The notes: generated by a model from the sequence alone, not told the origin. Positions 1 through 61,972 are shown, counted from the stretch's first letter. The stretch is 64,000 bases of DNA from Escherichia coli (GCF_002854065.1 NZ_CP024151.1), one strand, 5' to 3'. Program-made: numbers and translations.

Positions 1-125
1 TGCAGTTGCCATGTTTTACGGCAGTGAGAGCAGAGATAGCGCTGATGTCCGGCGGTGCTTTTGCCGTTACGCACCACCCCGTCAGTAGCTGAACAGGAGG
101 GACAGCTGATAGAAACAGAAGCCAC
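1..125 (-). CDS. insA: IS1 InsA, N-terminal part (3' end lies outside window)
   Basis: Minus-strand translation from GTG at 125 reads [41 protein letters not shown], the InsA N-terminus. Confidence 0.7.
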
Positions 126-180
126 TGGAGCACCTCAAAAACACCATCATACACTAAATCAGTAAGTTGGCAGCATCACC
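1..180 (-). mobile_element. IS1, terminal ~180 bp (element continues beyond window start)
   Basis: Reverse complement of 158-180 is the IS1 terminal inverted repeat GGTGATGCTGCCAACTTACTGAT; the following bases match the IS1 insA 5' region. Confidence 0.8.
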
Positions 181-709
181 AGATTCTGACCAGACGGTTC
201 AGGCTGTACGCTTACGGTTGTCGTGAAGGAGGGGGAAGACCATCTCATCGCTTACTGATGTTCCTGTTACTATATCTATTGAATCCTGGCTATAAGTTCG
301 CTGTTTAAAGAATTATATGAATAGCACCAATTAATAAGTTAATATTAAAAAGAAGACAGACCTTCTAAATAAACGCATTGAATCTATGTTCCCTTGTGAG
401 TGTTTTTACGTTTGGCGGGAGGCCTGGAACCTCGGGATTTAACTTTTCTTTTTATATTTTTGATAAAATCATCAATAGAAAACTGAATCGTCTCTGATAA
501 ATACTGTTGAGCTATATCTGTACTCTGTTTTTCTAAATCAGAAGCTTTCTTTGTTTCAAGAACAGATTTGATTAACTCCTTACGTTGTGTACACCAAATC
601 TCGTCAGATGAACAGTATTTTTTATTTTCGTGTTTGTTCATTATTTATTGCTCTAACTGATTTATTTCCCTATATCCAGGGAGTAGATATATCTACTCCC
701 TGCTTATTA

Positions 710-2407: not shown

Positions 2408-2502
2408 ATGGTATTCCTTCTGAGTTGCATCACGAACATTTATTAATAATAAAAGCCTCTGATATAAATAAAAACTATGTAAATCGTTTAAATGGATACC
2501 TG

Positions 2503-3639
2503 TTAAAACTGATACATCATACCAACAGCAAGTATATTATCGGTTGCAACTCCAGCCTTTTTGGTAAATTCGCTTTCATCAATAAGGTTAATTTTGTAAT
2601 CAATAAGAAGTGACATGTTTTTGTTCAGAAAGTAGTTTGCGCCAACATCAATATACTCAACAAGAGACTGATCGCCATAGTTTACTATTCCACCTTTAAC
2701 ATCCATCCCTTTGGACTGAACGTAAGCCAGTGAAGGACGCAGGCCGAAATCAAACATATACTGAGCCACAACTTCAATATTCCGTGCTTTATCTGCGATG
2801 CCTGCGCTACCAAATGGAGTCATATTTCGGGTTTCAGAGTAGTCAGCTGCCAGATACAGGTCATTATCATTATACTTGACCCCAACACCTGCAAACTCCG
2901 CATGTTTTCCCCCGGCAATCCAGCGAGGCGTAATAACTTCTTTTCCTTCTGAATCTTTCGATGTCATGAAACGTTTACGGCCTTCTTTTTCCTGCAGACT
3001 GGTTCTGTCGGCATTAGTGTAAGCGGCAACGATTCCAAAACCTTCATAGTCATAGCTTACGGAGAAACCATATCCATCACCATTAGCTTCAAGTAAATTA
3101 TCACGGTCATTTTTACCCTGATATTGAGCAGAAAAAGTAAGTCCATCAACAAGCCCGAAGAAATCTGTATTGCGCCAGGTCAGAACTCCGGTTGTTCTGC
3201 CGGTCATATAGTTATCAGAGTAAGTCCAGCTGTCACCACCAAAGTCCGGAAGTACGTCAGTCAGAGCCCCCACATCATAGGCAACACCATAGTTTCGCCC
3301 ATAATCAAGTGAACCGAGTATATTGTGGCGAATACCTGCAAATGCCAGACGATTTTTATCGTTGCGTACTTCACTTTCTGTCTTAAACCCCAGGAACTGG
3401 TATTCCCACTGACCAAAGCCAGTCAGGCTCTCATTAATTTGTGTTTCGCCTTTGAAACCAAGACGTGCAAATGTTCTGTCGCCATCCATAGAACCATCAG
3501 AGATGTAATGACGGGCTTTAACGCGACCATAAAAATCCAGTTTATTACCGTCTTTATTATAGATTTCTGCTGCCTGTGTTGCCTCACACAGCATTAATGC
3601 AGAAACGACAGAGCACACAACCACACTTAATTTTCGCAT
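2503..3639 (-). CDS. Outer-membrane general porin (OmpC/OmpF/PhoE family)
   Basis: Starts MRKLSVVV... with signal peptide, AEIYNKDGNKLD and GFGQWEYQ motifs, C-terminal ...MMYQF; start taken at internal ATG (track M8). Confidence 0.8.
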   Translation of the reverse strand: MRKLSVVVCSVVSALMLCEATQAAEIYNKDGNKLDFYGRVKARHYISDGSMDGDRTFARLGFKGETQINESLTGFGQWEYQFLGFKTESEVRNDKNRLAFAGIRHNILGSLDYGRNYGVAYDVGALTDVLPDFGGDSWTYSDNYMTGRTTGVLTWRNTDFFGLVDGLTFSAQYQGKNDRDNLLEANGDGYGFSVSYDYEGFGIVAAYTNADRTSLQEKEGRKRFMTSKDSEGKEVITPRWIAGGKHAEFAGVGVKYNDNDLYLAADYSETRNMTPFGSAGIADKARNIEVVAQYMFDFGLRPSLAYVQSKGMDVKGGIVNYGDQSLVEYIDVGANYFLNKNMSLLIDYKINLIDESEFTKKAGVATDNILAVGMMYQF

Positions 3640-41394: not shown

Positions 41395-42081
41395 TTACTT
41401 AACGCTATAAAATTCACGAATTATATTTAATAGCAAATCTATTTTCCCTTTATAGATACATGACACTCTGAATAAATCAAAGTGTTCAAAAAATTCTTTT
41501 ATTTTCCGTTTAACTGGTTTAATTCGATCCTCAGATGCTCTGTCTGTAATACCCAATTCTCTGGCAATTGTTGCATGACCAACACCCAGCATATAAAAAG
41601 AGAAAACAAGCAATGTCCCGGGGGAAAGATCATTCCATATCGTTAATTTATCAGAAGTATTTGTATTACTTCCACTCTGACTTAACGCAAAAAATGGATA
41701 ATCAGGAAACGGATTAATTTGCCATAAAACAACAGATTCGTCATTATAAAAAGAAACATTCTCCATCCTTATCTGATAGATTTCGCCATGAAAATTAAAA
41801 CGACGACAAAATGCAGAGCCATGTCCAAGAGCCTGGCATTCCAATTCAAGTGATGAAAGAAAAATTTCAACCTGCAGACGTATATAACTCTCTCCGGATA
41901 AGGGTTTATCTTCTCTGGAAAAGAGTTCAATAAAAGCCCCATTGGCATAAAGGATTTTCCGGTTTTTGTTACGGACACAAACCGGAACGGGAGAATTTCT
42001 GTAGATATTCTGAACGTTAAGGATGTACTTATTTACAGATTGACTGTTAAGTGGCCTTTCTCTACGATCCAGCGCACACAT
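41395..42081 (-). CDS. traJ: TraJ transcriptional activator of the tra operon
   Basis: Position between traY and traM; start taken at internal ATG ([13 protein letters not shown]...) preceded by GGAGG; 228 aa. Confidence 0.8.
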
Positions 42082-42152
42082 AGGAACCTCCGTTAAGGAT
42101 TCTATGGACAGTCGATGCAGGGAGTTCAGACCTCCCTGCATCGGCGATTTTC
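42072..42152 (+). ncRNA. finP: FinP antisense RNA (approximate bounds)
   Basis: Antisense to traJ leader/RBS; hairpin GATGCAGGGAG-N6-CTCCCTGCATC followed by GCGATTTT on the plus strand. Confidence 0.5.
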
Positions 42153-42271
42153 AGTTTCAATTTTTAACGTGGCATTAACCACGTAATTAATATACTAATT
42201 ATCTGACGTATTGTCATCTTTTTGAATCATAAAAATTCTTATATTTGAACCAACTCAAACTTCATTTTCAT

Positions 42272-42655: not shown

Positions 42656-43069
42656 AAGACAGTACCTTTTATATTCTGAAACAAGTGTTTTATTTCATTT
42701 ACTAATAGTTTGGTCTGAAAAAAGAAGAGCACCCCTAGCAGCGCCCCTAGGGGCATACTATAAAAAAACGCACGGCGCTGCTAGGGGCGGCCCTAATATA
42801 TCCAAATGTTTTTCATAAAATTTGTCAGTACTGACCCTAACAAGGGTCGCCATAGGGTCGCCATAGGGTCGTCAACGCCCCTATTTAATAATGTAAAATA
42901 AATTAAAATACATTATTTAAAACATAAGCTAATGATTCAAAAAGCAAATCAGCAAAAACTTGTTTTTGCGTGGGGTGTGGTGCTTTTGGTGGTGAGAACC
43001 ACCAACCTGTTGAGCCTTTTTGTGGAGTGGGTTAAATTATTTACGGATAAAGTCACCAGAGGTGGGAAA
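42656..43069 (+). other. oriT: oriT; nic site between 42978 and 42979 on the plus (transferred) strand
   Basis: Plus strand carries the F nic sequence TTTGCGTGGGGTGT^GGTGCTTT, inverted repeat GGTGGTGAGAACCACC (42988-43003), and GGGTCGCCATA direct repeats upstream. Confidence 0.85.
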
Positions 43070-43579
43070 ATGAAAAAATGGATGTTAGCCATCTGCCTGA
43101 TGTTTATAAATGAGATCTGTCTGGCCACTGATTGCTTTGATCTTGCAGGCAGGGATTACAAAATAGATCCTGATTTACTGAGAGCAATATCATGGAAAGA
43201 ATCCCGTTACCGGGTTAATGCCATCGGTATTAATCCGGTAACGGGATATGGCAGCGGACTGATGCAGGTAGATTCCCAGCATTTTAACGAACTGGCCCGC
43301 TATGGAATTAAGCCGGAACATCTGACAACAGATCCCTGCATGAACATTTATACCGGTGCTTATTATCTGGCAATAGCCTTTAAAAAATGGGGCGTCTCCT
43401 GGGAGGCCGTTGGTGCATACAATGCCGGATTCAGGAAAACCGAACGCCAGAACCAGAGACGTCTTGCCTACGCATCAGATGTTTACCGGATTTATACCGG
43501 GATAAAAAGCAGTAAAGGTATCCGGCTTCCGGCCACGAAGAAATCACTTCCGGAAATTAACAGCGAGCAGAACAATTAA
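43070..43579 (+). CDS. Lytic transglycosylase Orf169 (gene X / P19 family)
   Basis: 169 aa from [12 protein letters not shown]... with SLT motifs; GAGGTGGG RBS; divergent from traM. Confidence 0.9.
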
Positions 43580-43835
43580 TCTTACAGACATTGTCAGATA
43601 CCGGTTATGCCGCAAAAGCGGCATGGAAGGCCACACACAAAAATATCATATGAGTGACAATACTGACTGGCCGAAGCCCCGCGAAGCGGGAACCCATCTT
43701 ATATATACCCGGTAACTGCGCAGCCTCCTGCCAGACCATTTTTCGCGGGCACAATATTTACAGACAACCGGAAAGCCGGTTGATGAAATCGAGGTATATC
43801 AGACGACACAGCAATGCCGAAAAATGATAATATAA

Positions 43836-45123: not shown

Positions 45124-45765
45124 GTTTTCAGCCCCCATCATCTGTTGAGTTTCGGGAGCCGCGGTTTTGACGTTTTGCGGGGACCTGCCTTTTGTTCCCT
45201 CCGGTATTCACCATCACCTTTTTGAGAACCTTCGCCGCAAGGGGCATCACTGCCACGGCCGGAAACGACTGTCCGGGGGCAGACCGCAAAAGTTTTTGCC
45301 TGCTTTTGAGCAAAAAGTTTTGCGGGATGTGCATTTCACCCCTGGACTGGCGGAGACGGTTGTGGCTGTCTATGCCCCCGGCGACAGGGGCTTAAACAGG
45401 TGAATGGCACCGGACACAACAACGGGCAGGGACCCGCCGCAACGACGTGAAGCGCGGTTTGCGAAACGGCGTTGCCCCTTACATCCCGGCGGCCTTTTGC
45501 CGGGATGCCGGGAGCGCAGGCCACGGCGCGACAGAGGCGGCGCGACCGGAACGGTCGCTGCAAGCCCGGGGTTTTCACGCATCGGACCGTAGCGACAGCC
45601 CGAAACCGCGCCAGCGGGTTCGGCGGAGACTGGCAGGTGCGCCAGCAGCTGCCTGTCGGAGTCGGGTCTGACGACCGGATGCCGCCAGGCAGCCGGGAGC
45701 CGAAGGTGCGCCCGGCAGACAGGACAACACTGCAGTAGTCAGAATCAGAGCAGGAAGAAAAAGAG
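45124..45765 (-). repeat. GC-rich leading-region repeat, copy 1 (Frpo/ssi-like candidate)
   Basis: ~640 bp nearly identical to 50461-51093 and, over its distal ~390 bp, to 53826-54433. Confidence 0.8.
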
Positions 45766-50460: not shown

Positions 50461-51093
50461 TTTTCAGCCCCCATCATCTTTTGAGTTTCGGGAGCCGCGG
50501 TTTTGACGTTTTGCGGGGACCTGCCTTTTGTTCCCTCCGGTATTCACCATCACCTTTTTGAGAACCTTCGCCGCAAGGGGCATCACTGCCACGGACGGAA
50601 ACGACTGTCCGGGGGCAGACCGCAAAAGTTTTTGCCTGCTTTTGGGCAAAAAGTTTTGCGGGATGTACATTTCACCCCTGGACTGGCGGAGACGGTTGTG
50701 GCTGTCTTTGCCCCCGGCGACAGGGGCTTAAACAGGTGAATGGCACCGGACAGAACAACGGGCAGGGACCCGCCGCAACGACGTGAAGCGCGGTTTGCGA
50801 AACGGCGTTGCCCCTTACATCCCGGCGGTCTTTTGCCGGGATGCCAGGAGCGCAGGCCACGGCGCGACAGAGGCGGCGCGACCGGAACGGTCGCTGCAAG
50901 CCAGGGGTTTTCACGCATCGGACCGTAGCGACAGCCCGAAACCGCGCCAGCGGGTTCGGCGGAGACTGGCAGGTGCGCCAGCAGCTGCCTGTCGGAGTCG
51001 GGCCTGACGACCGGATGCCGCCAGGCAGCCGGGAGCCGAAGGTGCGCCCGGCAGACAGGACAACACTGCAGTAGTCAGAATCAGAGCAGCAGG
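50461..51093 (-). repeat. GC-rich leading-region repeat, copy 2 (immediately upstream of ssb)
   Basis: Nearly identical to copy 1 with a few substitutions. Confidence 0.8.
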
Positions 51094-51104
51094 AAAAAGA
51101 AGAA

Positions 51105-51152
51105 CAGTAGCAGTAGCAGTAGCAGTAGCAGTAGCAGTAGCAGTAGCAGTAG
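51105..51152. repeat. Hexanucleotide tandem repeat (CAGTAG)8
   Basis: Eight perfect CAGTAG units adjacent to repeat copy 2. Confidence 0.9.
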
Positions 51153-51330
51153 CAGGAACAACAACATCAGTAACAGACAAATGACAGGCATGAAGAAACA
51201 GAAGCCCCCATCAGAACGTCCGCGTAATGAAAGGGGCGGCGCGTGAGCGCGGCCCCTTTCAGCACCACCGGCGCGCGTTTTTTCCCGGCGCGGGCAGACA
51301 GGCATTTATCCTCCCGCCGGCCCTGTGTCA

Positions 51331-51894
51331 TCAGGCACGCAGACGAATAATCATCGTCGGGACATCGGTATAAGCAAACGTGCCGCGCGGCAGCTCCTCG
51401 CGGACGTCAGAAAACGGTAACAGCTTCTCCTGCTGGCGTGGTCCGTTGAGACAGACGGCGACCAGCACGCCACCCGGACGCAACAGGGAAAAGGCCCGCA
51501 GGATATGCCGGATATCCTGCCCGTGGCTGAACGGCGGATTCATGATAACCCGGCTGTAATACTGCACCGGCTGCCATTCCATGAAGTCGCCACACTGAAC
51601 CCTGACACCGTTAAAATTTTCCCGCAGATACCGGACCAGCCCGCTGTTGATTTCCACCGCATCACACATGGCCCCCGGCGCGGTATCCCGAATCGCCCGC
51701 AGTATGGCCCCGGTGCCGGCAGAGGGTTCCAGAATGTGATCACGGTTGCTGATCTCCGCCAGCATCACCAGGCGATCACAGACCGGGGCAGGAGTCACAA
51801 AAAGCTGAGATTCAGCCCGGATTTCAGCAACCGGCGCGGCGTTATCCAGCCTTGCGCGCATCAGCCGGATACGTTCTCTTAACTGACTGTGCAT
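51331..51894 (-). CDS. SAM-dependent methyltransferase (putative N6-adenine class, NPPF motif)
   Basis: 187 aa with SAM-binding motif EPSAGTGAIL followed by IMNPPF. Confidence 0.65.
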   Translation of the reverse strand: MHSQLRERIRLMRARLDNAAPVAEIRAESQLFVTPAPVCDRLVMLAEISNRDHILEPSAGTGAILRAIRDTAPGAMCDAVEINSGLVRYLRENFNGVRVQCGDFMEWQPVQYYSRVIMNPPFSHGQDIRHILRAFSLLRPGGVLVAVCLNGPRQQEKLLPFSDVREELPRGTFAYTDVPTMIIRLRA

Positions 51895-51941
51895 ATCATT
51901 ATCTCCGTCATCCCCCGGGGATTTTCCCGGGGGGATATACC

Positions 51942-53303
51942 TTATTTCTGTGGGATTTCCGTGATTTTCATGTCGGAGATATACACATTCACCAGGCGGA
52001 AATTATTGTCCATTGTGCGGCGGTACCGGTATGCCCCGTGGTCTTCTGCTTCTGCCACACTGCGCACGGCCTTACAGTCCCGGGGCAGGGCGGCCCACTG
52101 TGCCTTTGTCATTTCCCGGAAACCTTCCCCCGGATAGTTGACTACCGGCGGACGCTTCGCGGCCTGACTGGCGACGGCAGCCTCTTCTGCCGATGGTGCT
52201 TTGTAGTCCGTGATGCGATCGGGCGTCACTTTCATCGTGCCGCTGTACCCGAGAAAACTGTAATTTGGCGTTGTGACTGAACTCACCGCCCCGTTGCTTT
52301 TGTTCACACGGATGATGGTCAGCCACTCGCCCCGGCTGAAAACCTGTCCGCCCGGCTCAAAATCCTGTGTCCGGGTAACCACGCCGCCGCTTTCGTCCAG
52401 CATGGCACGCTCATAGATCAGGCGGTTCTGATAGTGGTTAACCCAGCGTTGTTGATGCTGAATCTGCCGTTCATGACAGCGGATCGCAATTTCGCGGGCC
52501 TGCTCCGTGGTGATGATGTCATCATCCAGGGCCGACCATAACGATCGACTTCCTTCATACTGGCTTTTTTCTGCCGGGCGCGGATACGTATCCAGCGGGA
52601 AACAGGCGCTGATATGGTCATGACTGCTGATGAGTTTTGCCATATTCAGATCCAGCGATTCAGCCCGCCACATCGTCAGATATTTCTGCGACTGCGCGAT
52701 GGTCTTTTCAGCCTTGCGCAAATCAGCTTCGATTTTTTTGATACGACGCCAGCGAACGTCCGGACGTTCTTTATACTTCGCGTGAAGCAGTGCCGACCGC
52801 GCCCGCTCTTCCCAGTATTCCGCACGTTCAAAGAGCATCACGGCTCGTTTCATGCCGTTTTCAATACGCTGCGCATCACGACGGGCGCGGCGTTCGCTGT
52901 GATGCCCCACAAGAATGGGCTGACCGGGCGGGATCATCGCGGCCAGTCTTTCCACTTCATCAAGTGCCTGTGCGGATTCACTGGCCCGCTTTCCGCTGTA
53001 TCCGGTAAACCGCTCCGCCCGTGCTTCCTGACGTTCAGCGAGCGTGCTGTCTTCATCCTCAATCTCTCCGGCAAGTGAGAGGAGCACGTCTTCCCGGCCC
53101 GGTGTCCAGGCTGGCGCGACAAACAGCGCCTGTTTGGGTGCCCAGCGAAAACCGGCATCATGCACTTTTTTATACGTCTCCGGGTCGAGGCGTGACGCGG
53201 CATACAGGCGCAGTTTGTTGTCATCCGGTGAGTAGGTCGCGCGGTACATCTGCACAGGGCTGGCGGCTTCCGGGGCGGTCATGGTGATTGCTGCTAATGT
53301 CAT
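51942..53303 (-). CDS. Conserved leading-region protein of unknown function (453 aa, DUF3560-like)
   Basis: ATG preceded by AAGGAGA; charged helical central region, no recognisable catalytic motif. Confidence 0.5.
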   Translation of the reverse strand: MTLAAITMTAPEAASPVQMYRATYSPDDNKLRLYAASRLDPETYKKVHDAGFRWAPKQALFVAPAWTPGREDVLLSLAGEIEDEDSTLAERQEARAERFTGYSGKRASESAQALDEVERLAAMIPPGQPILVGHHSERRARRDAQRIENGMKRAVMLFERAEYWEERARSALLHAKYKERPDVRWRRIKKIEADLRKAEKTIAQSQKYLTMWRAESLDLNMAKLISSHDHISACFPLDTYPRPAEKSQYEGSRSLWSALDDDIITTEQAREIAIRCHERQIQHQQRWVNHYQNRLIYERAMLDESGGVVTRTQDFEPGGQVFSRGEWLTIIRVNKSNGAVSSVTTPNYSFLGYSGTMKVTPDRITDYKAPSAEEAAVASQAAKRPPVVNYPGEGFREMTKAQWAALPRDCKAVRSVAEAEDHGAYRYRRTMDNNFRLVNVYISDMKITEIPQK

Positions 53304-53354
53304 AAAATGTTCTCCTTCCGTCTGTTGCCGCCCCTCGCGGGGCGGCTCACCTCA

Positions 53355-53585
53355 TCAGTTAAAAGCGCGTTTCAGTTCGAGTGTGCGGAGCACCTGCCCG
53401 AAGGCCGTGTTTTTCATGGCGGGGATGTGTACACCACGCCCCCGGTGAAAACTCCGGGCAATGTGTCGCCCGAAGGCTTTCAGCACGGGGTCAATTTCCG
53501 GCGCGGGGATGTCTTCGCGTCTGAAACGGGGATGACGGCGGGGCTTTACAGCCGCTGCGGAAGGTGAAACAATACTTACTGTCAT
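53355..53585 (-). CDS. Hypothetical small basic protein (76 aa)
   Basis: ATG with AAGGAG RBS, downstream of repeat copy 3. Confidence 0.45.
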   Translation of the reverse strand: MTVSIVSPSAAAVKPRRHPRFRREDIPAPEIDPVLKAFGRHIARSFHRGRGVHIPAMKNTAFGQVLRTLELKRAFN

Positions 53586-53825
53586 AAATGAAACTCCTTA
53601 TGACAAATTGGTTAACAATGCCGTCAAAATTGGTTGTGCAATTCTTACGGCGTGGATTAAGCAGGTCCCTGACCTGCTTTTTTCATATCTGCGTCTGACG
53701 TTCTACGGTGTTTTCCTCCTTCTGTTCCTGCGTTCTCATTACCTGCCAGCCGGATGACTGACAGAACAAATAAATGCATATTGCCGGAGCCTGAAATAAA
53801 TCCTGATTTTTAAAGAACATCACCC

Positions 53826-54433
53826 GTTGAGTTTCGGGAGCCGCGGTTTTGACGTTTCGCGGGAACCTGCTGCTGTATTCCCTGTGGTATGAACTTCACC
53901 CGTTTGAGAACCTTCGCCGCAAGGGGCATCACTGCCACGGCCTGACGCACCTGTCCTGGGCAGAACGCAAAATTTTTTACCGGGTTTTGGGTAAAAAATT
54001 TTGTGGGCTGTTCATTTACCCTGGACAGTCAGTGCGGCAGGTTGTGGCTGTATCAGCCCCCGGCGACAGGGACTCATACGGGTGTGTGGCACCGGCAGGC
54101 AATGAGCAGGGACCCGCCGCAACGACGGAGAGCGCGTGCGCGAAACGGCGTTGCCCCTTACATCCCGGCGGCCTTTTGCCGGGATGCCGGGAGCGCAGGC
54201 CACGGCGCGACAAGGGTGGCGCGACCGGAACGGTCGCTGCAAGCCCGGGGTTTTCACGCATCGGACCGTAGCGACAGCCCGAAACCGCGCCAGCGGGTTC
54301 GGCGGAGACTGGCGGGTGCGCCAGCAGCTGCCTGTCGGAGTCGGGCCTGACGACCGGATGCCGCCAGGCAGCCGGGAGCCGAAGGTGCGCCCGGCAGACA
54401 GAACAACACTGCAGTAGTCAGAATCAGAGCAGC
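53826..54433 (-). repeat. GC-rich leading-region repeat, copy 3 (diverged in proximal third)
   Basis: Distal ~390 bp closely match copies 1 and 2; first ~220 bp diverge after the shared GTTGAGTTTCGGGAGCCGCGGTTTTGACGTTT. Confidence 0.75.
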
Positions 54434-54622
54434 AGATAAAGGAACAACAACATCAGGAACAGTTCCATAACATAAGAAAGAAACACTCCTGAGTCAGACA
54501 CATCACAGACGGGAAGGGTAACGGGCGACGCGCCAGCGTGGCCCGCTTCCCTTCCGGCAGGCGTCAGCCTGCCAGGGGTTTTCGCGCGGACTGACAGGCG
54601 GCCTCCACCGCCTGCCCCTGTA

Positions 54623-54814
54623 TCACCTGTTTCTGCTACCCTGTAAGATGTAGTGACCGCCCAGGAAAACCGCCTGCTGATTCGCCACAAAATCGCAGAT
54701 TTCATCAACAATCTGCGCGGTGGTGAGCGGTTTCTGCCCCATTTCACGACGCCGCGCATTAATCACGGCCCTGTAATTACGCAGAATTTCGCGGGTTTCT
54801 GTGCTGATATTCAT
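54623..54814 (-). CDS. Hypothetical small protein (63 aa)
   Basis: ATG overlapping the stop of the upstream 144 aa gene (ATGA), suggesting coupling. Confidence 0.45.
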   Translation of the reverse strand: MNISTETREILRNYRAVINARRREMGQKPLTTAQIVDEICDFVANQQAVFLGGHYILQGSRNR

Positions 54815-55245
54815 GACATCGTCTCCCCGTCCAGCGCCTGTAACACAACGTCCATTGCTTCGCGTTCCTCCCTGACGAATGCGTCACCGTCGCCCCCGTT
54901 CTCACTCCCGACGGCATACAGGCGCTTCATTTCACTGCCTGCCAGCGCCATCACTTTTTCCAGCATCACCGCCGGGACTGTCACCTGACGGCTGGCGCGC
55001 TTTTCTTCCATCAGTTCATGAACAACGCCGTGAACAACGCCGTGAACAACGCTGACATCCGCACCATATTCAAAGGCATCGTCCAGCCGCTGCATGACGG
55101 TTTCCAGCTCATCGTCTGTCAGACTCCAGTCCTGGGCTATGTGACGCACATCCCCACGGGTCAGCACCACGGCAAAAACGCATTCACTGTCCGGCACGTC
55201 TGTATCCAGCACTTCGCGGATAATTTCTTTAACAGTACAGTACAT
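54811..55245 (-). CDS. Conserved leading-region protein, paralog B (144 aa, DUF1380-like)
   Basis: AAGGAGA RBS; shares N-terminal MY-T-E--RE, S/LTD-E--TV and RQVTVPA segments with the 56961-57395 ORF. Confidence 0.55.
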   Translation of the reverse strand: MYCTVKEIIREVLDTDVPDSECVFAVVLTRGDVRHIAQDWSLTDDELETVMQRLDDAFEYGADVSVVHGVVHGVVHELMEEKRASRQVTVPAVMLEKVMALAGSEMKRLYAVGSENGGDGDAFVREEREAMDVVLQALDGETMS

Positions 55246-55291
55246 GTTCTCGTCTCCTTTACAGGGGCGGCATTGCCGCCCCGTCCGTTAA

Positions 55292-55717
55292 TCAGTCCAG
55301 AGCCGCGTAAATCGCGTTGCATTCGGGGTGAAATTCGATGTGACGCCACAACTGCGCATCGCGCATCCGGTAAAGCTGGGTCAGTCCTGCATCCCCGCTG
55401 TCGTGGTACAGCCACAACTGGCGGTTAATCACAAGGGAGGTCAGGATGATGCCTGCGGCATCAGCACTCACGGTACGGTCAAACCAGTTTGCACCGTTCA
55501 CCATGTGGAAACGGTCGCCATCCGGCATCATGTAACCGCCACCGTCCGGCAGGCGGATGAAGTGCCAGAAGCCTCCCTGATATTCCGGCATCATTTTTTG
55601 CGCCAGCGCGTACACATACGCCTCGGCATACAGAAAATCGTTGCCAAACAGATACGGCAGAAAGGAGAGACGGTCGCACTCTTCAACATTCAGAGTGACA
55701 GGTTTCGCATATTGCAT
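55292..55717 (-). CDS. klcA: Antirestriction protein, KlcA/ArdB family
   Basis: 141 aa; [18 protein letters not shown] and NAIYAALD segments parallel KlcA of IncP; GGAGGA RBS. Confidence 0.85.
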
Positions 55718-56133
55718 GATGTTTTCCTCCGTTGTTCACATATTCCGCGACACCGGGCGGTGCCGTGCCTCCATAAAAGCCGGGCGAACAGGCGGGGATG
55801 CAGGGGCGCAAGGGAAGCCGCAGCCTGACGCACACGGCTGACGGGAGTTGCAGGGTGAGACCGCGAAATCTGAGCGGGTGAACGACCGGAAAATCACGGC
55901 AGACGGGAAGGAGGGACCGGGTGACCGCAGCGGCGAAGCGTACCCTTGCATCAACGCCAGCCCGGCTAAGATGGAGGCACGGCACAGCCCGCACACGACG
56001 CTGAGGCCACATAACTGAAAAACCACAAGGCCATGCCCTGCATGGCCGGGTAAAGCGGAGCCGGCGGCGACTTCCTTTGTGCTCTGTCCGGGGACCGGCA
56101 GGAAAAAGGCGGGGATTTACCCCGCCAGTGTCA

Positions 56134-56910
56134 TCATTTCCGGATTTTTGCCAGGGCATCCGCCATGCTGCGGATTTCGGTCCGGGCTTCCCGGACCACC
56201 TCCCGCAGAACACCACGGTCAAACCAGCGGCGGGGCGGTTCATCCGGTATACGCAGCACATCGCAGGCCAGCCCACTGGACAGGATATGCTCAATACACT
56301 CACTGACCAGATACATTTCCACCGACGAAAAACGTGCTCCCCGGTTCACGATGGCATCGAGCACCACGGGCAGGTTTTCGTCATCTTCATCGAGCCAGCA
56401 GGGGTGATCGCTTTCCTTCACGACCAGGCGAAAGCGGCGCGTCTGGCGGGTCAGCAACGTCTGACCGGTGGTGGTCAGCGCCGCACGGATACGCCGCGCA
56501 TCTTCTGCCACCTGGTAACAGATGCTTCGTACCGCATCGTGCACCGCATCAAGAACAGCCTTGATTTCGTCTTCGGTCAGCCATTCTCCGGCATACGGGA
56601 AAGACACCTGCGTTCCGTCTGCCGGAAGTACCGGCAGCGACTGCCACTGACTGCCGGACAGTACCAGTTCCGCCCCGGTTCCGGTCAGTCTCTGAATGGC
56701 GGAGGCCAGGAGCGGCGGCAGTACGCCGCCGTGACGGTTGATAAGTAACGTCGCCAGCCGGGGCGCATCCAGCCGCACGTAAATGCTGATCCAGCCCGGA
56801 TAGTTCGGATTTCGCTGGTCAACATCCGTCTCTTCCGGCCAGTCCTGCGCCAGCAGCAGGTTACGGGCGTGACGACAAATCAGTGCGTTCAGCGTGCTGT
56901 TTTCGTTCAT
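56134..56910 (-). CDS. Hypothetical leading-region protein (258 aa from ATG 56910; track ORF extends to 56961)
   Basis: Internal [11 protein letters not shown] preceded by AGGGAGA; no recognisable motif. Confidence 0.5.
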
Positions 56911-56960
56911 GATTAAGCGTTCTCCCTGTATCGCCGCCCGCAGGGCAGGCGGCGATAACA

Positions 56961-57395
56961 TCAGTTGTTTTCGTGTGTGTTGTTTTTCAGCAGGGTGCGG
57001 GCCTGATTAACCACCGCCTGACGGCGGGTAACGCATTCCGGGACGGCGAGGCCGTTATCACGGGCGGCCCACTCACGTTTCCACAGTGCCTGTTCAGCGG
57101 TCTGAATCAGGGACGCCAGCAGTTCAGCAGGGACGGTCACCTGGCGGTTTTCGCTCACGTTGCTGATAATCTCCATCACCGCGGCGGAAGAAATACCGGA
57201 TTCAGTCCGCTGGTCTTCCGGGATGTCCTCCATGCGCGCCAGGACGGTCCTGATTTCATGATCGGTCAGAGAAATTTCCATACCGTCAGCCAGTGCCTGA
57301 ATCTCTTCCGGGGACCAGATAACCAGCATCAGCGGCGCGTCTCCCGGATACTTTGCTGCCAGCTCCCGGCATAGCGTTTCGCATGTTCCGTACAT
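56961..57395 (-). CDS. Conserved leading-region protein, paralog A (144 aa, DUF1380-like)
   Basis: AAGGAGA RBS; paralogous to the 54811-55245 ORF. Confidence 0.55.
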
Positions 57396-57408
57396 TCTCG
57401 TCTCCTTC

Positions 57409-57630
57409 TCAATCTTTGAAGCAGGAATCCAGTTCCAGAATTTCGGTATACGCCTCCATAAACAGGCGATTGGCGCGATACAGCGTCTGGCGTGTCAGGC
57501 GTTCAACAAGCACATCGGAATCAAAGCGACAGCGATGCTCCATATCGTTCAGCCTAGCCCGAAGGTCACACATGGTGTTGGCCACCTCCGCCACGTCGGC
57601 GCGAAGTTTTTCGTGTCCGGCATAGTTCAT
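57409..57630 (-). CDS. Hypothetical small protein (73 aa)
   Basis: ATG directly after the methyltransferase stop codon. Confidence 0.4.
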   Translation of the reverse strand: MNYAGHEKLRADVAEVANTMCDLRARLNDMEHRCRFDSDVLVERLTRQTLYRANRLFMEAYTEILELDSCFKD

Positions 57631-58314
57631 TTACGCAGCCTCCGGTTCAAACCAGTTATCATTCGCGGCCCCCTGCTGCATGGCCCGTTGCACGGCGGCC
57701 AGTCGTTGCTGTCCGGCACGGTGATACTGTTCAAGCAGCTCGATACCGATATACCGGCGTCCGGACTGGAGGGCGGCCACGCAGGTTGAGCCGCTGCCTG
57801 CAAACGGGTCCAGCACAATCGCGTTCGGATGTGTGAAGCTCTCAATCAGTGGTTGCAGGCTGGTAACGGGCTTTTCCGTCGGGTGATGGCGGTTGCCCGA
57901 ATATTTCCAGCCCAGCACGTCGGGTAATGGCTTCGGAGGCAGCGCCGGACGGCCTTTTGCCAGGATATAGGCGCATTCGTGACGGTACGCGACATACGCA
58001 GATTTGGATGTGTAGCTTTTGGTGAACACAAGGTGCCCTACAACGCTGAATCCGGCGCGTTTCCAGGCTGCCATAAAGCGGTCAATACGGTTCCAGCCAT
58101 AGAAACTCACCATCAGCGCATCTTTTTTTAGTACGCGGTACATCTCATTACTGGCAGGTTGCAGCCAGTCATCGTTAACGTCACCGGCAATGGTGCGCCC
58201 GGAACGGTCACGAAAACCAACGAGATATGGTGGGTCGGTTAAGATGAAATCAATGGCGTTATCAGGAATCGTGGCCATAACACGCACGCAGTCACCCAGG
58301 ATAAAACGGGACAT
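57631..58314 (-). CDS. DNA methyltransferase, beta-class N6-adenine/N4-cytosine type (DPPY motif)
   Basis: 227 aa with FILTDPPY near the N-terminus and DPFAGSGSTCVAA SAM-binding motif near the C-terminus; GAGGAGGA RBS. Confidence 0.8.
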   Translation of the reverse strand: MSRFILGDCVRVMATIPDNAIDFILTDPPYLVGFRDRSGRTIAGDVNDDWLQPASNEMYRVLKKDALMVSFYGWNRIDRFMAAWKRAGFSVVGHLVFTKSYTSKSAYVAYRHECAYILAKGRPALPPKPLPDVLGWKYSGNRHHPTEKPVTSLQPLIESFTHPNAIVLDPFAGSGSTCVAALQSGRRYIGIELLEQYHRAGQQRLAAVQRAMQQGAANDNWFEPEAA

Positions 58315-58699
58315 AACAGCACTCCTCCTCTTACAGAGGGCACCGGGAGGGCGCCCCTGTGGCGCCCGTTCTCCGCTGCCTGTGGGCTGTTCACCGCGTC
58401 CGGTAACGGGTCAGGCCGACCGTGGAATACCGCAGCCGTCGTCTTTCTGACGGCGAGGATATGCCGCGAAAGCGGCTTGAAGGGCATTCATCAGAAAAGG
58501 GCGACAGGCTGGCGTACACTGTCACCGACGCCAGCCAGGAGCGGTAAAAGCGCCCGTCCCGTGCCCGGCCGGACACGGGACACTGACCACAGGCAGCGTT
58601 CCTGCCGCGCCGCGTCAGCCGGCGCAGTAAAAAGAGGAGCACGGCGACATCCTTTGTCGGAAAAGAAACGGGCGGTTGCCCGCCCGTCTCCGTCATACT

Positions 58700-59626
58700 T
58701 CATCCGCCATAATGCGCCACCTTGTCGACTATCCACGCAGGTCCGGTGACTTCCGGCAGCTCATCGTCATCTGTCGGGGAAGACCATTCAAGTTCCCCCC
58801 ACAGCACATCAACGAGCTCTCCACGCTCATACAACTGCCAGCCACAGAAATTGCAGCCTTGTTCGGCGTACCAGTGCTCCAGCGTGCAGCTGAAACGGCG
58901 GCTTAATTCTGCAACAACGTCGCTTTCCGGCTGACACCACGGCGTGTCGAAATCCACCTGAATGAAGTTTTCTCCCTGACTGCTGATATTCAGGTCATAC
59001 CCACAAGGCCACTTCACGCCATACCGTTCGGTATACCAGTGATATGCAGAAGGAACACCGTTCAGAACACCACCGTTAAAGCCATTCACTTCAACATCCA
59101 GGCGGGTCGGCAGAACCGTCAGCAGGTCAAACGGCATGGTTTTTTCCGGCAGCACGTTGTCACACAGACGGTTCCACCACACCGATACATCCTCGTTACC
59201 CCAGATGTCACACCAGTCACCTCTTTTTGCGGTGAAATGCACAGTGATGATTTCCCTGACATCATCCGGTAATCCTTCCCAGCGACGCTGTCCAGTACCG
59301 CTCTGCAGCCAGAGTTTATGCAGCATCAGGCAGTTTTGCTCATCCAGCAGTACACCGTCCTGCAGGTATGTCAGCCAGCGGGTGAACGCGATATTCTCCG
59401 GCGATACAACGCCACGCCCGGCAGCCGTCAGTCCGGGGCATGGTTCAAACCGCACATCTTCAGTGGTCTGCAGAAGTCCGGCACTTCCGGCCAGAAACAG
59501 CTGAATACCTTCATTTGTGGCGCGGCGATAAAGCGGTGTGACTGCACCGCTGGCCAGTCGTTTAATCTCAGCAATCTGTGCCGGTTCACCAGAAAAATGC
59601 ATACGATTTGAGCACCAGTTTGGCAT
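58700..59626 (-). CDS. Hypothetical Cys/Trp-rich leading-region protein (308 aa from ATG 59626; track ORF extends to 59671)
   Basis: Internal ATG MPNWCSNRMHF preceded by GAGAGGAGAA; multiple C-x-x-C/W-C motifs. Confidence 0.55.
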   Translation of the reverse strand: MPNWCSNRMHFSGEPAQIAEIKRLASGAVTPLYRRATNEGIQLFLAGSAGLLQTTEDVRFEPCPGLTAAGRGVVSPENIAFTRWLTYLQDGVLLDEQNCLMLHKLWLQSGTGQRRWEGLPDDVREIITVHFTAKRGDWCDIWGNEDVSVWWNRLCDNVLPEKTMPFDLLTVLPTRLDVEVNGFNGGVLNGVPSAYHWYTERYGVKWPCGYDLNISSQGENFIQVDFDTPWCQPESDVVAELSRRFSCTLEHWYAEQGCNFCGWQLYERGELVDVLWGELEWSSPTDDDELPEVTGPAWIVDKVAHYGG

Positions 59627-59980
59627 GGGAATTCTCCTCTCACATGCGGCCTCTATCAGGCCGTGCCGCACCTGTAACCGGGCGACCGCATACGAATGCA
59701 GGTGCGGCCCCGAAGCCGCAGCGCGTGGAGGAGGAACGACGAAACGTGACCGGGTGAGGAGGCCGGCGACAGCGACACACTTGCATCGGATGCAGCCCGG
59801 TTAACGTGCCGGCACGGCCTGGGTAACCAGGTATTTTATTCACAGAACCGTGCGCAAAATGCTGTGGATAAGCTGGACACAGCAGTCCACAGCAGGCATA
59901 CAGCCACACCCTCAGAGAATTGAGCGTTTTTTAGTCACAATAATGACATTTGACTGTGTGTGGATTCAGTTATTAGAATG

Positions 59981-59996
59981 CTGTATATACATACAG
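59981..59996 (+). promoter_or_regulatory. LexA box (SOS operator) upstream of impC
   Basis: CTGTATATACATACAG fits CTGT-N8-ACAG, ~25 bp upstream of the impC ATG. Confidence 0.7.
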
Positions 59997-60019
59997 CAAT
60001 AGAAAAGGGAGATGAGAAC

Positions 60020-60268
60020 ATGATCCGCATTGAAATTCTTTTCGACCGCCAGAGCACAAAAAACCTCAAATCAGGCACACTTCAGGCGCTACAGAATGAA
60101 ATCGAACAACGTCTGAAACCACACTCCCCGGAAATCTGGCTGCGTATAGACCAGGGCAGCGCCCCGTCTGTATCTGTCACAGGAGCCCGCAACGACAAGG
60201 ATAAAGAACGTATCATGTCTCTGCTGGAAGAAATCTGGCAGGACGACAGCTGGCTGCCTGCAGCATGA
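60020..60268 (+). CDS. impC: ImpC (DinI-like SOS modulator)
   Basis: MIRIEILFDRQSTKNLKSGTLQALQNEIEQRLKPHSPEIWLRIDQGSAP...EIWQDDSWLPAA, DinI-family pattern. Confidence 0.85.
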   Translation: MIRIEILFDRQSTKNLKSGTLQALQNEIEQRLKPHSPEIWLRIDQGSAPSVSVTGARNDKDKERIMSLLEEIWQDDSWLPAA

Positions 60269-60702
60269 GTACCGTTTATCACCGTCCGGCTGACCCTTCA
60301 GGCGATGACAGTTACGTGCGACCGTTGTTTGCCGATCGTTGCCAGGCCGGTTTTCCTTCGCCTGCCACTGATTATGCTGAGCAGGAACTGGATCTGAACA
60401 GCTATTGCATCAGCAGACCTGCAGCCACCTTCTTTCTGCGCGCCAGCGGTGAATCGATGAACCAGGCTGGCGTGCAGAATGGTGATCTGCTGGTAGTGGA
60501 CAGGGCCGAGAAACCACAACACGGGGACATCGTTATCGCTGAGATCGACGGTGAGTTCACCGTCAAACGACTGCTGTTGCGCCCACGCCCGGCACTGGAG
60601 CCGGTTTCAGACAGCCCGGAATTTCGCACACTGTATCCGGAAAACATCTGTATTTTTGGTGTTGTCACTCACGTGATACACAGGACGCGGGAGTTACGCT
60701 GA
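60265..60702 (+). CDS. impA: ImpA (UmuD/MucA-like, S24 peptidase fold)
   Basis: 145 aa LexA/UmuD-like; start overlaps impC stop (ATGA). Confidence 0.9.
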   Translation: MSTVYHRPADPSGDDSYVRPLFADRCQAGFPSPATDYAEQELDLNSYCISRPAATFFLRASGESMNQAGVQNGDLLVVDRAEKPQHGDIVIAEIDGEFTVKRLLLRPRPALEPVSDSPEFRTLYPENICIFGVVTHVIHRTRELR

Positions 60703-61972
60703 TGTTTGCACTGGCTGATATCAACAGTTTCTACGCCTCATGTGAAAAAGTTTTCCGCCCGGACCTTCGCAACGAACCGGTCATCGTACTCAGCAATAAC
60801 GATGGCTGTGTGATCGCGCGCAGCCGGAGGCAAAAGCCCTTGGCATCAGAATGGGGCAGCCCTGGTTTCAGGTGAGACAGATGCGCCTGGAGAAGAAAAT
60901 ACATGTATTTTCCAGCAATTATGCGCTGTACCACAGCATGAGCCAACGGGTCATGGCTGTTCTGGAGTCGCTTTCTCCCGCAGTTGAGCCCTACTCAATT
61001 GATGAAATGTTCATTGATTTGCGGGGGATAAATCATTGCATCTCTCCGGAGGTTTTTGGTCATCAGCTCAGGGAACAGGTAAAGAGCTGGACAGGACTCA
61101 CCATGGGGGTGGGCATTGCGCCTACAAAAACGCTGGCTAAAAGTGCACAGTGGGCAACAAAGCAATGGCCACAGTTTTCCGGTGTGGTCGCGCTGGAGGC
61201 AGAAAACCGTAATCGGATCTTGAAGCTACTGGGGCTGCAGCCAGTTGGTGAGGTCTGGGGAGTAGGACGCAGACTGACGGAAAAGCTGAATGCGCTGGGT
61301 ATTAACACAGCACTGCAGCTGGCGCAGGCTAACACGGCATTCATCCGGAAAAACTTCAGCGTCATTCTTGAGCGTACGGTACGCGAACTCAACGGCGAGT
61401 CCTGCATATCCCTGGAAGAAGCACCACCGGCAAAACAGCAGATTGTCTGTAGTCGCAGTTTTGGTGAACGAATCACAGACAAAGATGCCATGCACCAGGC
61501 TGTTGTTCAGTATGCAGAGCGGGCCGCAGAGAAACTACGTGGGGAGCGTCAGTATTGCCGGCAGGTGACGACATTTGTACGGACATCCCCCTTTGCAGTA
61601 AAAGAACCCTGTTACAGCAATGCCGCTGTGGAAAAGCTTCCATTACCCACACAGGACAGCCGGGACATTATTGCCGCAGCATGCAGAGCGTTAAACCATG
61701 TCTGGCGTGAAGGGTACCGCTATATGAAGGCAGGAGTCATGCTGGCTGATTTCACACCATCGGGTATAGCGCAGCCGGGATTATTTGATGAGATCCAGCC
61801 CCGTAAAAACAGCGAAAAGTTAATGAAAACACTCGATGAACTGAACCAGTCTGGAAAAGGGAAAGTGTGGTTTGCGGGGCGAGGAACCGCCCCTGAATGG
61901 CAAATGAAACGGGAAATGCTCTCGCCTTCGTATACAACACAATGGACTGAGATCCCCATTGCTTCATTCTGA
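60702..61972 (+). pseudogene. impB: ImpB (UmuC/MucB-like Y-family polymerase), apparent -1 nt frameshift near 60822-60826
   Basis: N-terminal 40 codons (MFALADINSFYASCEKVFRPDL...VIARS) in frame 0 then stop at ~60878; remainder (EAKALGIRMGQPWFQ... 373 aa) continues in another frame. Confidence 0.8.

Follow-up and report, generated by a model that had tools for sequence, protein, structure and literature searches.

What are the mostly uncharacterised genes beside ssb and psiB of an Escherichia coli plasmid for, and what switches them on? The question is raised by a window of 64,000 nucleotides (nt) of E. coli DNA (GCF_002854065.1, NZ_CP024151.1; all positions count from its first letter), in which a block of eleven open reading frames (ORFs) begins at position 51331. 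A first-pass annotation of the sequence had assigned the block to a plasmid leading region, with all genes pointing toward the origin of transfer (oriT), and had named three functions in it, a KlcA/ArdB antirestriction protein and two methyltransferases. The other ORFs were said to have no assignable motif and were offered as candidates for anti-restriction, anti-CRISPR or SOS-modulating functions. Our analysis indicates that the block is very probably the oriT-distal half of a classic IncF/IncI1-type leading region, composed of early, hairpin-driven operons for anti-restriction and establishment. In addition, one of the ORFs that had been left without a motif, of 453 amino acids (aa), looks like the N-terminal part of a methyltransferase encoded by two adjacent genes.

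Results

Position and orientation of the block

The plus strand carries an exact match to the F-type nic site (Table 1), a FinP and traJ leader at 42075-42184, a counterpart of F ssiE at 43574-43762 and sok at 46.2 kb. From these positions it follows that the plus strand is the transferred strand (T-strand) and that the minus-strand genes point to oriT. The distance from nic to the block is 8.35-16.7 kb, and all eleven ORFs are templated by the incoming T-strand. Given the published transfer rate of about 790 nt/s for F, the block would reach the recipient approximately 10-20 s after the onset of transfer.

The ORF call on the window returned all eleven ORFs on the minus strand and at the lengths first described, each with a GGAG-type Shine-Dalgarno site 5-10 nt before the start codon. 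The end of the block had been set at 59671, which is the upstream GTG of the longest possible ORF; the Shine-Dalgarno site belongs to the ATG at 59626.

To place the block among known plasmids, the 8.3-kb stretch was compared with PLSDB by megablast. It matched at least 5000 plasmids, with at least 80% of the query covered in no fewer than 3106 (both figures are lower bounds), mostly conjugative MOBF/MPF_F plasmids of Escherichia, Klebsiella, Salmonella and Shigella. Because the stretch recurs in so many plasmids, the ORFs are not chance occurrences. In annotated relatives it is flanked on one side by traM, an SLT protein, DUF932, hok, psiB, a ParB-like gene, DUF905 and ssb, and on the other by DinI with umuDC, and by parM. 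By this sequence evidence, the block corresponds to the half of the standard F-type leading region that is farther from oriT, and it is already known. Only a 1.9-kb fragment record matched in the phage collection; the strong PHROG matches reported below therefore do not indicate a phage origin.

Hairpins, promoters and operons

About 2.3 kb of the block is non-coding. These spacers had been overlooked in the first-pass annotation, and they contain the hairpins of single-stranded DNA (ssDNA) promoters: folded as DNA, the T-strand forms a large hairpin in every long gap. The hairpins were recognised from inverted and direct repeats, from DNA folds (z -2.7 to -9.1) and from homology to F ssiD and to the candidates of Samuel et al. 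(2024). On the coding strand, the promoter scan found no sigma-70-like promoter in the region 50.4-60 kb.

Homologues of all three published classes of ssDNA promoter, Frpo/ssi (class 1), ssp2 (class 2) and ssp3 (class 3), were located upstream of operons, and the block is thereby divided into four or five of these (Table 1). The class 1 promoter before ssb is 96.9% identical to F ssiD and folds into a hairpin of about 330 nt (-99.3 kcal/mol, z -9.1); a further Frpo copy lies at 45132-45481. The third copy, a direct repeat of 50472-51176, stands before the operon of the 76-aa ORF, the 453-aa ORF and the 187-aa methyltransferase (MT187). Its identity is 78.8% with F ssiD and 92.8% with the Frpo copy that stands before ssb in F, and its hairpin has -95.6 kcal/mol (z -7.8). 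The ssp2 hairpin, also called Frpo3, precedes klcA as an inverted repeat at 55754-55991 (-71.6 kcal/mol, z -4.6), and is 95.5% identical to F ssp2, 97.6% to that of the IncI1 plasmid pESBL-EA11 (hereafter pESBL) and 82.5% to the candidate Frpo' 4 of Samuel et al. The ssp3 hairpin, likewise an inverted repeat (-81.7 kcal/mol, z -5.0), precedes the methylase gene and is 96% identical to those of F and pESBL. The ssp3 operon probably ends at a terminator-like hairpin (seven G-C pairs, then TTTTT) directly after the 258-aa ORF.

Published experiments on near-identical genes already cover much of what the first-pass annotation had proposed as checks. By RNA-seq, Wen et al. (2025) found the operons of klcA and of the M.EcoGIX homologue strongly induced in fresh F and pESBL transconjugants, and mapped transcription starts of class 1, 2 and 3 promoters in pESBL. 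Deletion of ssp2 was reported by Fraikin et al. (2026) to decrease F transfer at least 21-fold into non-isogenic hosts, with a 36-fold effect against EcoGIII and a 5-fold effect against EcoKI. The methyltransferase was studied by Fomenkov et al. (2020, PMC7736820), as described below.

Compared with F (NC_002483, locus L002), the similarities of the Frpo copies are swapped. The copy before ssb is 98% identical to the oriT-proximal copy of F (L002 15657-16004), and the copy before the DUF3560 operon is 93% identical to the one before ssb in F. This is consistent with the operon having been inserted along with a duplicated Frpo. A 101-aa ORF at 58391-58696 on the minus strand, annotated as hypothetical in RefSeq relatives including F and pESBL, lies in the class 3 hairpin, has a pI of 11.5 and lacks a Shine-Dalgarno site, and was rejected as probably spurious.

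A putative split methyltransferase and an antisense RNA over its operon

MT187 contains the S-adenosylmethionine (SAM) motif I (EPSAGTG) and the catalytic motif IV (NPPF), the two motifs by which N6-adenine (amino) methyltransferases are recognised. Pfam assigned it to MTS, Methyltransf_25 and RrnaAD, that is, to the class I SAM methyltransferases. It is the one ORF of the block with PADLOC matches (mad2 at 1e-20, and type II methyltransferase models), and DNA methyltransferase models of PHROGs matched as well. Within its 187 aa, no target-recognition domain was found.

The preceding 453-aa ORF belongs to Pfam DUF3560 (YdbA family). A search against representatives clustered at 50% identity returned 3898 relatives, and 99 of the best 150 of these carry an MT187-like domain at their C-terminus. 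As the DUF3560 protein is fused to an MT187 homologue in so many distant relatives, the 453-aa ORF is not independent of its neighbour. Taken in order, the two ORFs align collinearly with the fused proteins (45-50% identity for the 453-aa ORF, about 41% for the 187-aa ORF); in the fused homologue P0256 the C-terminus is 41% identical to MT187 (BLASTP E 2e-39). With such collinear homology to single proteins, the gene pair falls into a DUF3560-methyltransferase fusion family, several fused members of which are named 'Methyltransferase type 11' in UniProt. One relative also carries LPD29, a polyvalent-protein domain. When a fused protein was used as the tblastn query, two adjacent pieces were obtained in Enterobacterales plasmids and one in beta-proteobacterial MOBF plasmids. 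An example of the latter is Ajs_4206 of Acidovorax sp. JS42 plasmid pAOVO01, a single fused gene in a unidirectional cluster with ssb and DUF932 near the relaxase, whereas in Enterobacterales, including the window, there are two genes, with a gap of 47 nt between them and a Shine-Dalgarno site before each. The metagenomic contexts of fused homologues showed no annotated neighbours and no other homologues of the window.

The 453-aa and 187-aa ORFs thus look like the N-terminal module and the C-terminal half of a split methyltransferase. The two proteins would be expected to cooperate, and the DUF3560 partner may supply the target recognition or DNA engagement for MT187. The AlphaFold2 (AF2) model of the 453-aa protein is of high confidence (predicted local distance difference test, pLDDT, 93.4) and combines a small alpha/beta domain with long helical hairpins and, at the C-terminus, beta domains. 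Foldseek searches with this model returned only family members or coiled coils, and family members only in AFDB50, with no informative fold. A PDB sequence search with DUF3560 found no match, and the family profile matched PDB entries in its methyltransferase part only, M.TaqI being the best.

The first gene of this operon, the 76-aa ORF, encodes a basic protein (pI 11.9) behind an AAGGAG Shine-Dalgarno site. It has a 46% identical homologue in pESBL (tblastn E 3e-13) and matched no family in NCBIfam, PHROGs or Pfam. A relationship with the 95-aa ORF that follows the first Frpo copy was considered and dropped, as the two showed no similarity.

On the opposite strand, the start of the 76-aa ORF is covered by the antisense small RNA AS-pc01, which by the scan has a sigma-70-like promoter (53545-53573) and a terminator (53659-53685) of its own. 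Direct reading of the sequence showed that the complementarity of AS-pc01 extends over both the Shine-Dalgarno site and the start codon of this ORF. As its template strand exists only after synthesis of the complementary strand, AS-pc01 could stop expression of the operon in the double-stranded plasmid, and may in this way silence the 76-aa/DUF3560/MT187 operon after establishment.

A class-2-like hairpin upstream of DUF1281

The short inverted repeat directly upstream of the 308-aa (DUF1281) gene folds into a hairpin of -50.3 kcal/mol (z -2.7) and shares conserved blocks with ssp2, among them CTTGCATC-N5-CAGCCCGGYTAA. In its 3' arm, the -35/-10-like hexamers TTGCAT-N15-TAACGT correspond to TTGCAT-N15-TAAGAT in ssp2. 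An alignment of eight members of the class 2 family showed compensatory changes in 17 of the 43 pairs, and the counterparts in F (L002 4638-4847) and pESBL (L011 3252-3462) are 97.6-99.5% identical, the latter being at 99.5%. With its conserved arms and hexamers and its position directly upstream of a gene templated by the T-strand, the hairpin has the sequence features of a class 2 promoter, and may be an overlooked or weak ssDNA promoter. The published maps list four ssDNA-promoter operons in F and six in pESBL, where class 2 promoters are placed only at klcA and ardA (Wen et al. 2025).

The antirestriction protein and the M.EcoGIX-type methylase

The three functions named at the outset stood up to the searches, with Pfam assigning Antirestrict (PF03230), N6_N4_Mtase and the class I SAM families, and with NCBIfam, PHROGs and PADLOC in agreement. 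The 141-aa ORF is KlcA/ArdB (YfgB in F), as it matched PF03230 (1.9e-26) and the solved KlcA and ArdB structures 2KMG (KlcA, 1.8e-18) and 2WJ9 (3e-7), and the similarity extends over its full length. The protein is 100% identical to that of pESBL and 98% to that of F, and no difference from KlcA/ArdB was detected. Fraikin et al. (2026) cite the inhibition of type I restriction by R64 ArdB, which is 93% identical to F YfgB.

The 227-aa ORF (MT227) is a beta-class N6/N4 DNA methyltransferase (NCBIfam PRK13699 at 4e-147, Pfam N6_N4_Mtase), in whose translation DPPY precedes FAGSG. Judged by its 92% aa identity, equal length and position behind the same hairpin, it is the orthologue of M.EcoGIX of pESBL (Fomenkov et al. 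2020). On single strands, M.EcoGIX produces promiscuous N6-methyladenine (m6A) at SAY, and it protects pESBL against restriction when the plasmid enters; its activity is tied to DNA polymerase I, and the enzyme is active when cloned alone (PMC7736820). The SAY specificity, the dependence on DNA polymerase I and the activity are known of M.EcoGIX, to which the allele of the window is likened by its sequence.

The remaining uncharacterised ORFs

Two paralogous 144-aa proteins, DUF1380a and DUF1380b, are 29% identical (E 2e-11). DUF1380a is strongly acidic (pI 4.4, net charge -17), and its gene contains a 12-nt coding repeat at 55019-55052 (2.8 copies, encoding VHGV repeats), the copy number of which varies among homologues. 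The start of the 63-aa ORF, which is 98% identical in F and pESBL, overlaps the DUF1380a stop codon by 4 nt, suggesting translational coupling. DUF1380b (Pfam DUF1380 at 6e-53, pI 4.7) was modeled by AF2 as an all-alpha protein with moderate confidence (pLDDT 72.9; predicted template modelling score, pTM, 0.47), for which Foldseek returned only DUF1380 proteins; no PDB match was found with the DUF1380 profile. In three DUF1380 proteins of the family alignment A5 (P0424, P0443 and P0462), a b-type N-terminal half is joined to an a-type C-terminal half at the conserved RQVTVPA motif, which implies that the paralogues recombined, an event by which the 258-aa gene, ssp2 and klcA would be lost.

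The 258-aa protein belongs to the YffA/YchA family (phrog_8919 at 1e-137). With 413 homologues this is a narrow family, in which every match listed has at least 82% identity, and neither Pfam nor the PDB gave a match. A motif (LTDxEIxxVL) that seemed to link it with DUF1380 was discarded (BLASTP E ~0.05, hhalign probability 3%). The 73-aa ORF (phrog_4830 at 1e-36) starts directly after the MT227 stop codon. Finally, the 308-aa protein was assigned to Pfam DUF1281 and DUF1281_C (Api92-like, YfdA/YubB family) and matched PDB entry 2IJR, 'hypothetical protein api92' (1e-50), a solved structure that carries no annotation. It has a pI of 4.6 and a net charge of -21; for their charges, DUF1281 and DUF1380a were considered as possible DNA-mimic antirestriction proteins.

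As a group, the uncharacterised ORFs matched at most DUF families in Pfam, NCBIfam, PHROGs, PADLOC and the PDB, with no dedicated anti-CRISPR library searched, and none showed similarity in sequence or fold to a characterised anti-defence family such as ArdA, Ocr or other DNA mimics, anti-CRISPRs or PsiB-like proteins. The view that these ORFs have no assignable motif thus held as far as function is concerned, except for the 453-aa ORF with its link to MT187. The profile and structure searches that had been suggested placed the ORFs in Pfam DUF families or in no Pfam family, and gave no functional lead for seven of them. In a literature search on DUF3560, DUF1281, DUF1380, Api92, ychA, ycgB, yubF, yffA and ydbA, no functional study was found.

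Table 1. Features of the leading-region block and its surroundings in the window.
Feature	Position	Strand	Remark
F-type oriT nic	42968-42986	+	Exact match to GCGTGGGGTGTGGTGCTTT; outside the block
Class 1 ssDNA promoter (Frpo/ssiD type) upstream of ssb	50468-50817	+	Just outside the block
187-aa ORF (MT187)	51331-51894	minus	
453-aa ORF (DUF3560)	51942-53303	minus	
76-aa ORF	53355-53585	minus	
Antisense small RNA AS-pc01	53580-53682	+	Rfam RF02875, 91.3 bits against a gathering score of 79
Third, diverged class 1 (Frpo-type) hairpin upstream of 76-aa/DUF3560/MT187	53829-54160	+	
63-aa ORF	54623-54814	minus	
144-aa ORF (DUF1380a)	54811-55245	minus	
141-aa ORF (KlcA/ArdB)	55292-55717	minus	
Class 2 hairpin (ssp2) upstream of klcA	55747-56000	+	
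Intrinsic-terminator-like hairpin and T-run	56108-56126	minus	
258-aa ORF	56134-56910	minus	
144-aa ORF (DUF1380b)	56961-57395	minus	
73-aa ORF	57409-57630	minus	
227-aa ORF (MT227)	57631-58314	minus	
Class 3 hairpin (ssp3) upstream of the methylase	58374-58598	+	
308-aa ORF (DUF1281)	58700-59626	minus	
Short class-2-like hairpin directly upstream of DUF1281	59657-59821	+	Candidate extra ssDNA promoter
Operon behind ssp3			Methylase, 73-aa ORF, DUF1380b, 258-aa ORF, terminator
Operon behind ssp2			KlcA/ArdB, DUF1380a, 63-aa ORF
Operon behind the third Frpo copy			76-aa ORF, DUF3560 protein, 187-aa methyltransferase
Possible operon			Class-2-like hairpin, DUF1281

Just past the block, the opposite strand carries at 59950-61972 (+) a sigma-70-like promoter (59950-59979), a DinI-like ORF, umuD and umuC. 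The latter is broken into ORFs of 57 aa and 373 aa, which points to a frameshift in this polymerase V gene. Between the ssb Frpo copy and MT187, a (CAGTAG)8.5 microsatellite occupies 51105-51155.

Discussion

Proposed order of events

The arrangement of genes and hairpins points to the following course of events. The plus strand would enter the recipient 5'-first from nic at 42.98 kb and, as long as it is single-stranded, the intergenic hairpins would re-create -35/-10 promoters from which the host RNA polymerase could transcribe the minus-sense genes in a burst, i.e. by zygotic induction. The M.EcoGIX orthologue would then methylate the incoming single strand promiscuously and blunt type II restriction, and KlcA/ArdB would inhibit type I restriction. 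DUF3560 and MT187 would form a second, bipartite methyltransferase, in which the DUF3560 module would replace the missing target-recognition or DNA-engagement domain. The two DUF1380 proteins, the 258-aa protein and DUF1281, which are small and mostly acidic, would most probably serve as accessory or as anti-defence or establishment factors in the same time window. Once the complementary strand is made, the hairpins would vanish and expression would stop, and AS-pc01, made from duplex DNA only, would act as a second lock on the 76-aa/DUF3560/MT187 operon. We infer the cooperation of DUF3560 with MT187, the anti-defence or accessory role of the uncharacterised proteins, the promoter function of the DUF1281 hairpin and the role of AS-pc01.

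In its most specific form, which we put forward only tentatively, the proposal makes two claims jointly. DUF3560 and MT187 would be a two-subunit nucleic-acid methyltransferase that has no target-recognition domain and engages DNA through a module of a new fold; produced in the single-stranded phase of entry only, switched on by Frpo and off by AS-pc01, it would provide broad anti-restriction beside M.EcoGIX. The very acidic DUF1281, behind an undescribed class 2 promoter, would be a new antirestriction or anti-defence effector. In this doubtful but specific scheme, DUF1281 would fill the slot that ArdA occupies behind the second class 2 promoter in IncI1.

Several observations weigh against the proposal. 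Among profiles matching MT187, rRNA adenine and protein-glutamine methyltransferases score similarly to DNA methyltransferases, and the fusion seen in relatives is a functional link, not a mechanism. The pointer to an early induction of DUF3560 and MT187 is Frpo alone, because F and pESBL do not have this operon. Wen et al. report six induced operons in pESBL, and the DUF1281 hairpin is not among them despite its 99.5% identity; as pESBL has the hairpin, it may be weak or inactive. For the DUF1380 proteins, the 258-aa protein, DUF1281 and the 63-, 73- and 76-aa ORFs, the profile, PDB and fold searches returned family members or no match. Finally, HerB/YfjB, the ParB-like neighbour in the leading region, is a host reprogrammer and not an anti-defence protein. 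This last point also shows that the position beside ssb, psiB and ParB-like genes, from which the first-pass annotation had argued, does not by itself imply anti-defence.

Alternative functions of the uncharacterised proteins

The same neighbour speaks for a different role of the uncharacterised proteins, which we regard as possible though not likely: they could be factors for establishment or host manipulation instead of anti-defence, made early because they are needed then. Their targets would be host transcription or metabolism, complementary-strand synthesis, recircularisation or the acquisition cost. YfjB/HerB was itself formerly an 'unknown next to ssb and psiB', and was found to bind the chromosome, reprogram host transcription and offset the cost of acquisition. 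In addition, the tie between M.EcoGIX and DNA polymerase I means that the proteins co-transcribed with it could act in DNA processing, and none of the uncharacterised ORFs matches an anti-defence family. However, they are co-transcribed with KlcA and the methyltransferases in conserved modules, such as the methyltransferase/73-aa/DUF1380/259-aa module of IncFII(K), and the deletion of ssp2 affects transfer only into non-isogenic hosts proficient in restriction-modification.

Co-transcription and tight spacing would also suit small proteins that are subunits or regulators of the adjacent known enzymes and not free-standing effectors, an explanation that we consider unlikely. According to it, M.EcoGIX would have the 73-aa protein, DUF1380b and the 258-aa protein as its tuning or targeting factors, or these three would protect the plasmid against the methylation-dependent (type IV) restriction that promiscuous m6A provokes; KlcA would be assisted by DUF1380a and the 63-aa protein. 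The gap of 0 nt between MT227 and the 73-aa ORF and the 4-nt overlap of DUF1380a with the 63-aa ORF suggest translational coupling; the order within the modules is kept across IncF, IncI1 and IncFII(K); and DUF3560 with MT187 sets a precedent for an uncharacterised neighbour that can be part of an enzyme. Fomenkov et al. (PMC7736820) also examined how sensitive M.EcoGIX-modified DNA is to the modification-dependent EcoKMrr. The activity of M.EcoGIX cloned alone argues against such dependence, no fusions to the methyltransferase or KlcA were seen save a likely read-through of adjacent genes in near-identical sequences, and neither structures nor sequences gave a sign of interaction. That the ORFs are merely hitch-hiking or decaying genes with no current function is very improbable. 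Signs of decay do exist, namely the frameshift of DUF1281 in F, the DUF1380 a/b chimeras of some plasmids with the loss of the 258-aa gene, ssp2 and klcA that they imply, and the lack of the DUF3560 operon in F and pESBL. They are set against ORFs that are intact, with Shine-Dalgarno sites, in thousands of plasmids of several genera, are 77-100% identical in aa sequence across IncF and IncI1 backbones, and are among the largest leading-region-enriched families.

We retain the early anti-restriction and establishment operons as the most probable explanation of the block. The candidacy of its genes for anti-defence, raised in the first-pass annotation, had already been published for these very families by Samuel et al. 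(2024), and nothing in our results points to anti-CRISPR or SOS-modulating functions in particular.

Comparison with related plasmids and known systems

Among the F-type plasmids responsible for the spread of antibiotic resistance in E. coli, Klebsiella and Salmonella, a large proportion carry the block, and its genes are among the first to be expressed in a new host. The roles of the uncharacterised members would show how plasmids pass host defences and could suggest blockers of establishment. Both the question and the list of candidates are in the literature, so the block as such does not open the question. Samuel et al. (2024) rank these families among the largest enriched in leading regions and label them uncharacterised. 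Families 6, 7, 8, 14, 15, 26, 27 and 28 of their Supplementary Table 1 are the gene families of the block: YffA/YchA, two DUF1380, the K07319 methylase, antirestriction, the K07317 methyltransferase, DUF1281 (YubB/YfdA) and DUF3560 (YdbA).

In plasmid F and the IncI1 plasmid pESBL-EA11 (NC_018659), the same proteins are found at 77-100% identity and the hairpins at 95-99.5%. Compared with F alone, the proteins are 92-98% and the intergenic hairpins 95-98% identical; compared with pESBL, KlcA is 100%, the methylase 92%, DUF1281 94% and the remaining proteins 77-98% identical. The shared order is DUF1281, class 3 hairpin, methylase, 73-aa ORF, DUF1380, 258-aa ORF, class 2 hairpin, KlcA, DUF1380, 63-aa ORF, Frpo and ssb. 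The plasmid of the window differs from both by the extra operon of the 76-aa ORF, DUF3560 and MT187, with its own Frpo copy and AS-pc01, inserted between the 63-aa ORF and the ssb Frpo. DUF1281 is intact in the window and in pESBL, whereas in F (yfdA, L002 4856-5778) tblastn gave two pieces in different frames, so that the F gene appears to be frameshifted.

In IncFII(K)-type plasmids (L008, pKPC2_020030, and L009, pSA20053897.3; locus 1-3163), the module of the methylase, the 73-aa ORF, DUF1380 and a 259-aa ORF is kept, with a class-2-like hairpin in place of class 3 and with ArdA following instead of KlcA; DUF1281 is absent. Promoters and effectors thus appear to be shuffled as modules, and the conservation of this module despite another promoter class and downstream gene argues for a functional unit.

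The anti-defence islands with Frpo-type promoters described by Samuel et al. (2024), Wen et al. (2025), Fraikin et al. (2026) and Shaw et al. (2026) share with the block their concept, gene families and promoter classes. The accessible portions of these four papers do not mention the split and fusion of DUF3560 and the methyltransferase, the class-2-like hairpin of DUF1281/yfdA or AS-pc01 over the start of the 76-aa ORF. To these systems, our analysis adds a testable link of DUF3560 and its methyltransferase as a putative single enzyme, together with an extra class-2-like hairpin and an antisense RNA over the start of an early operon.

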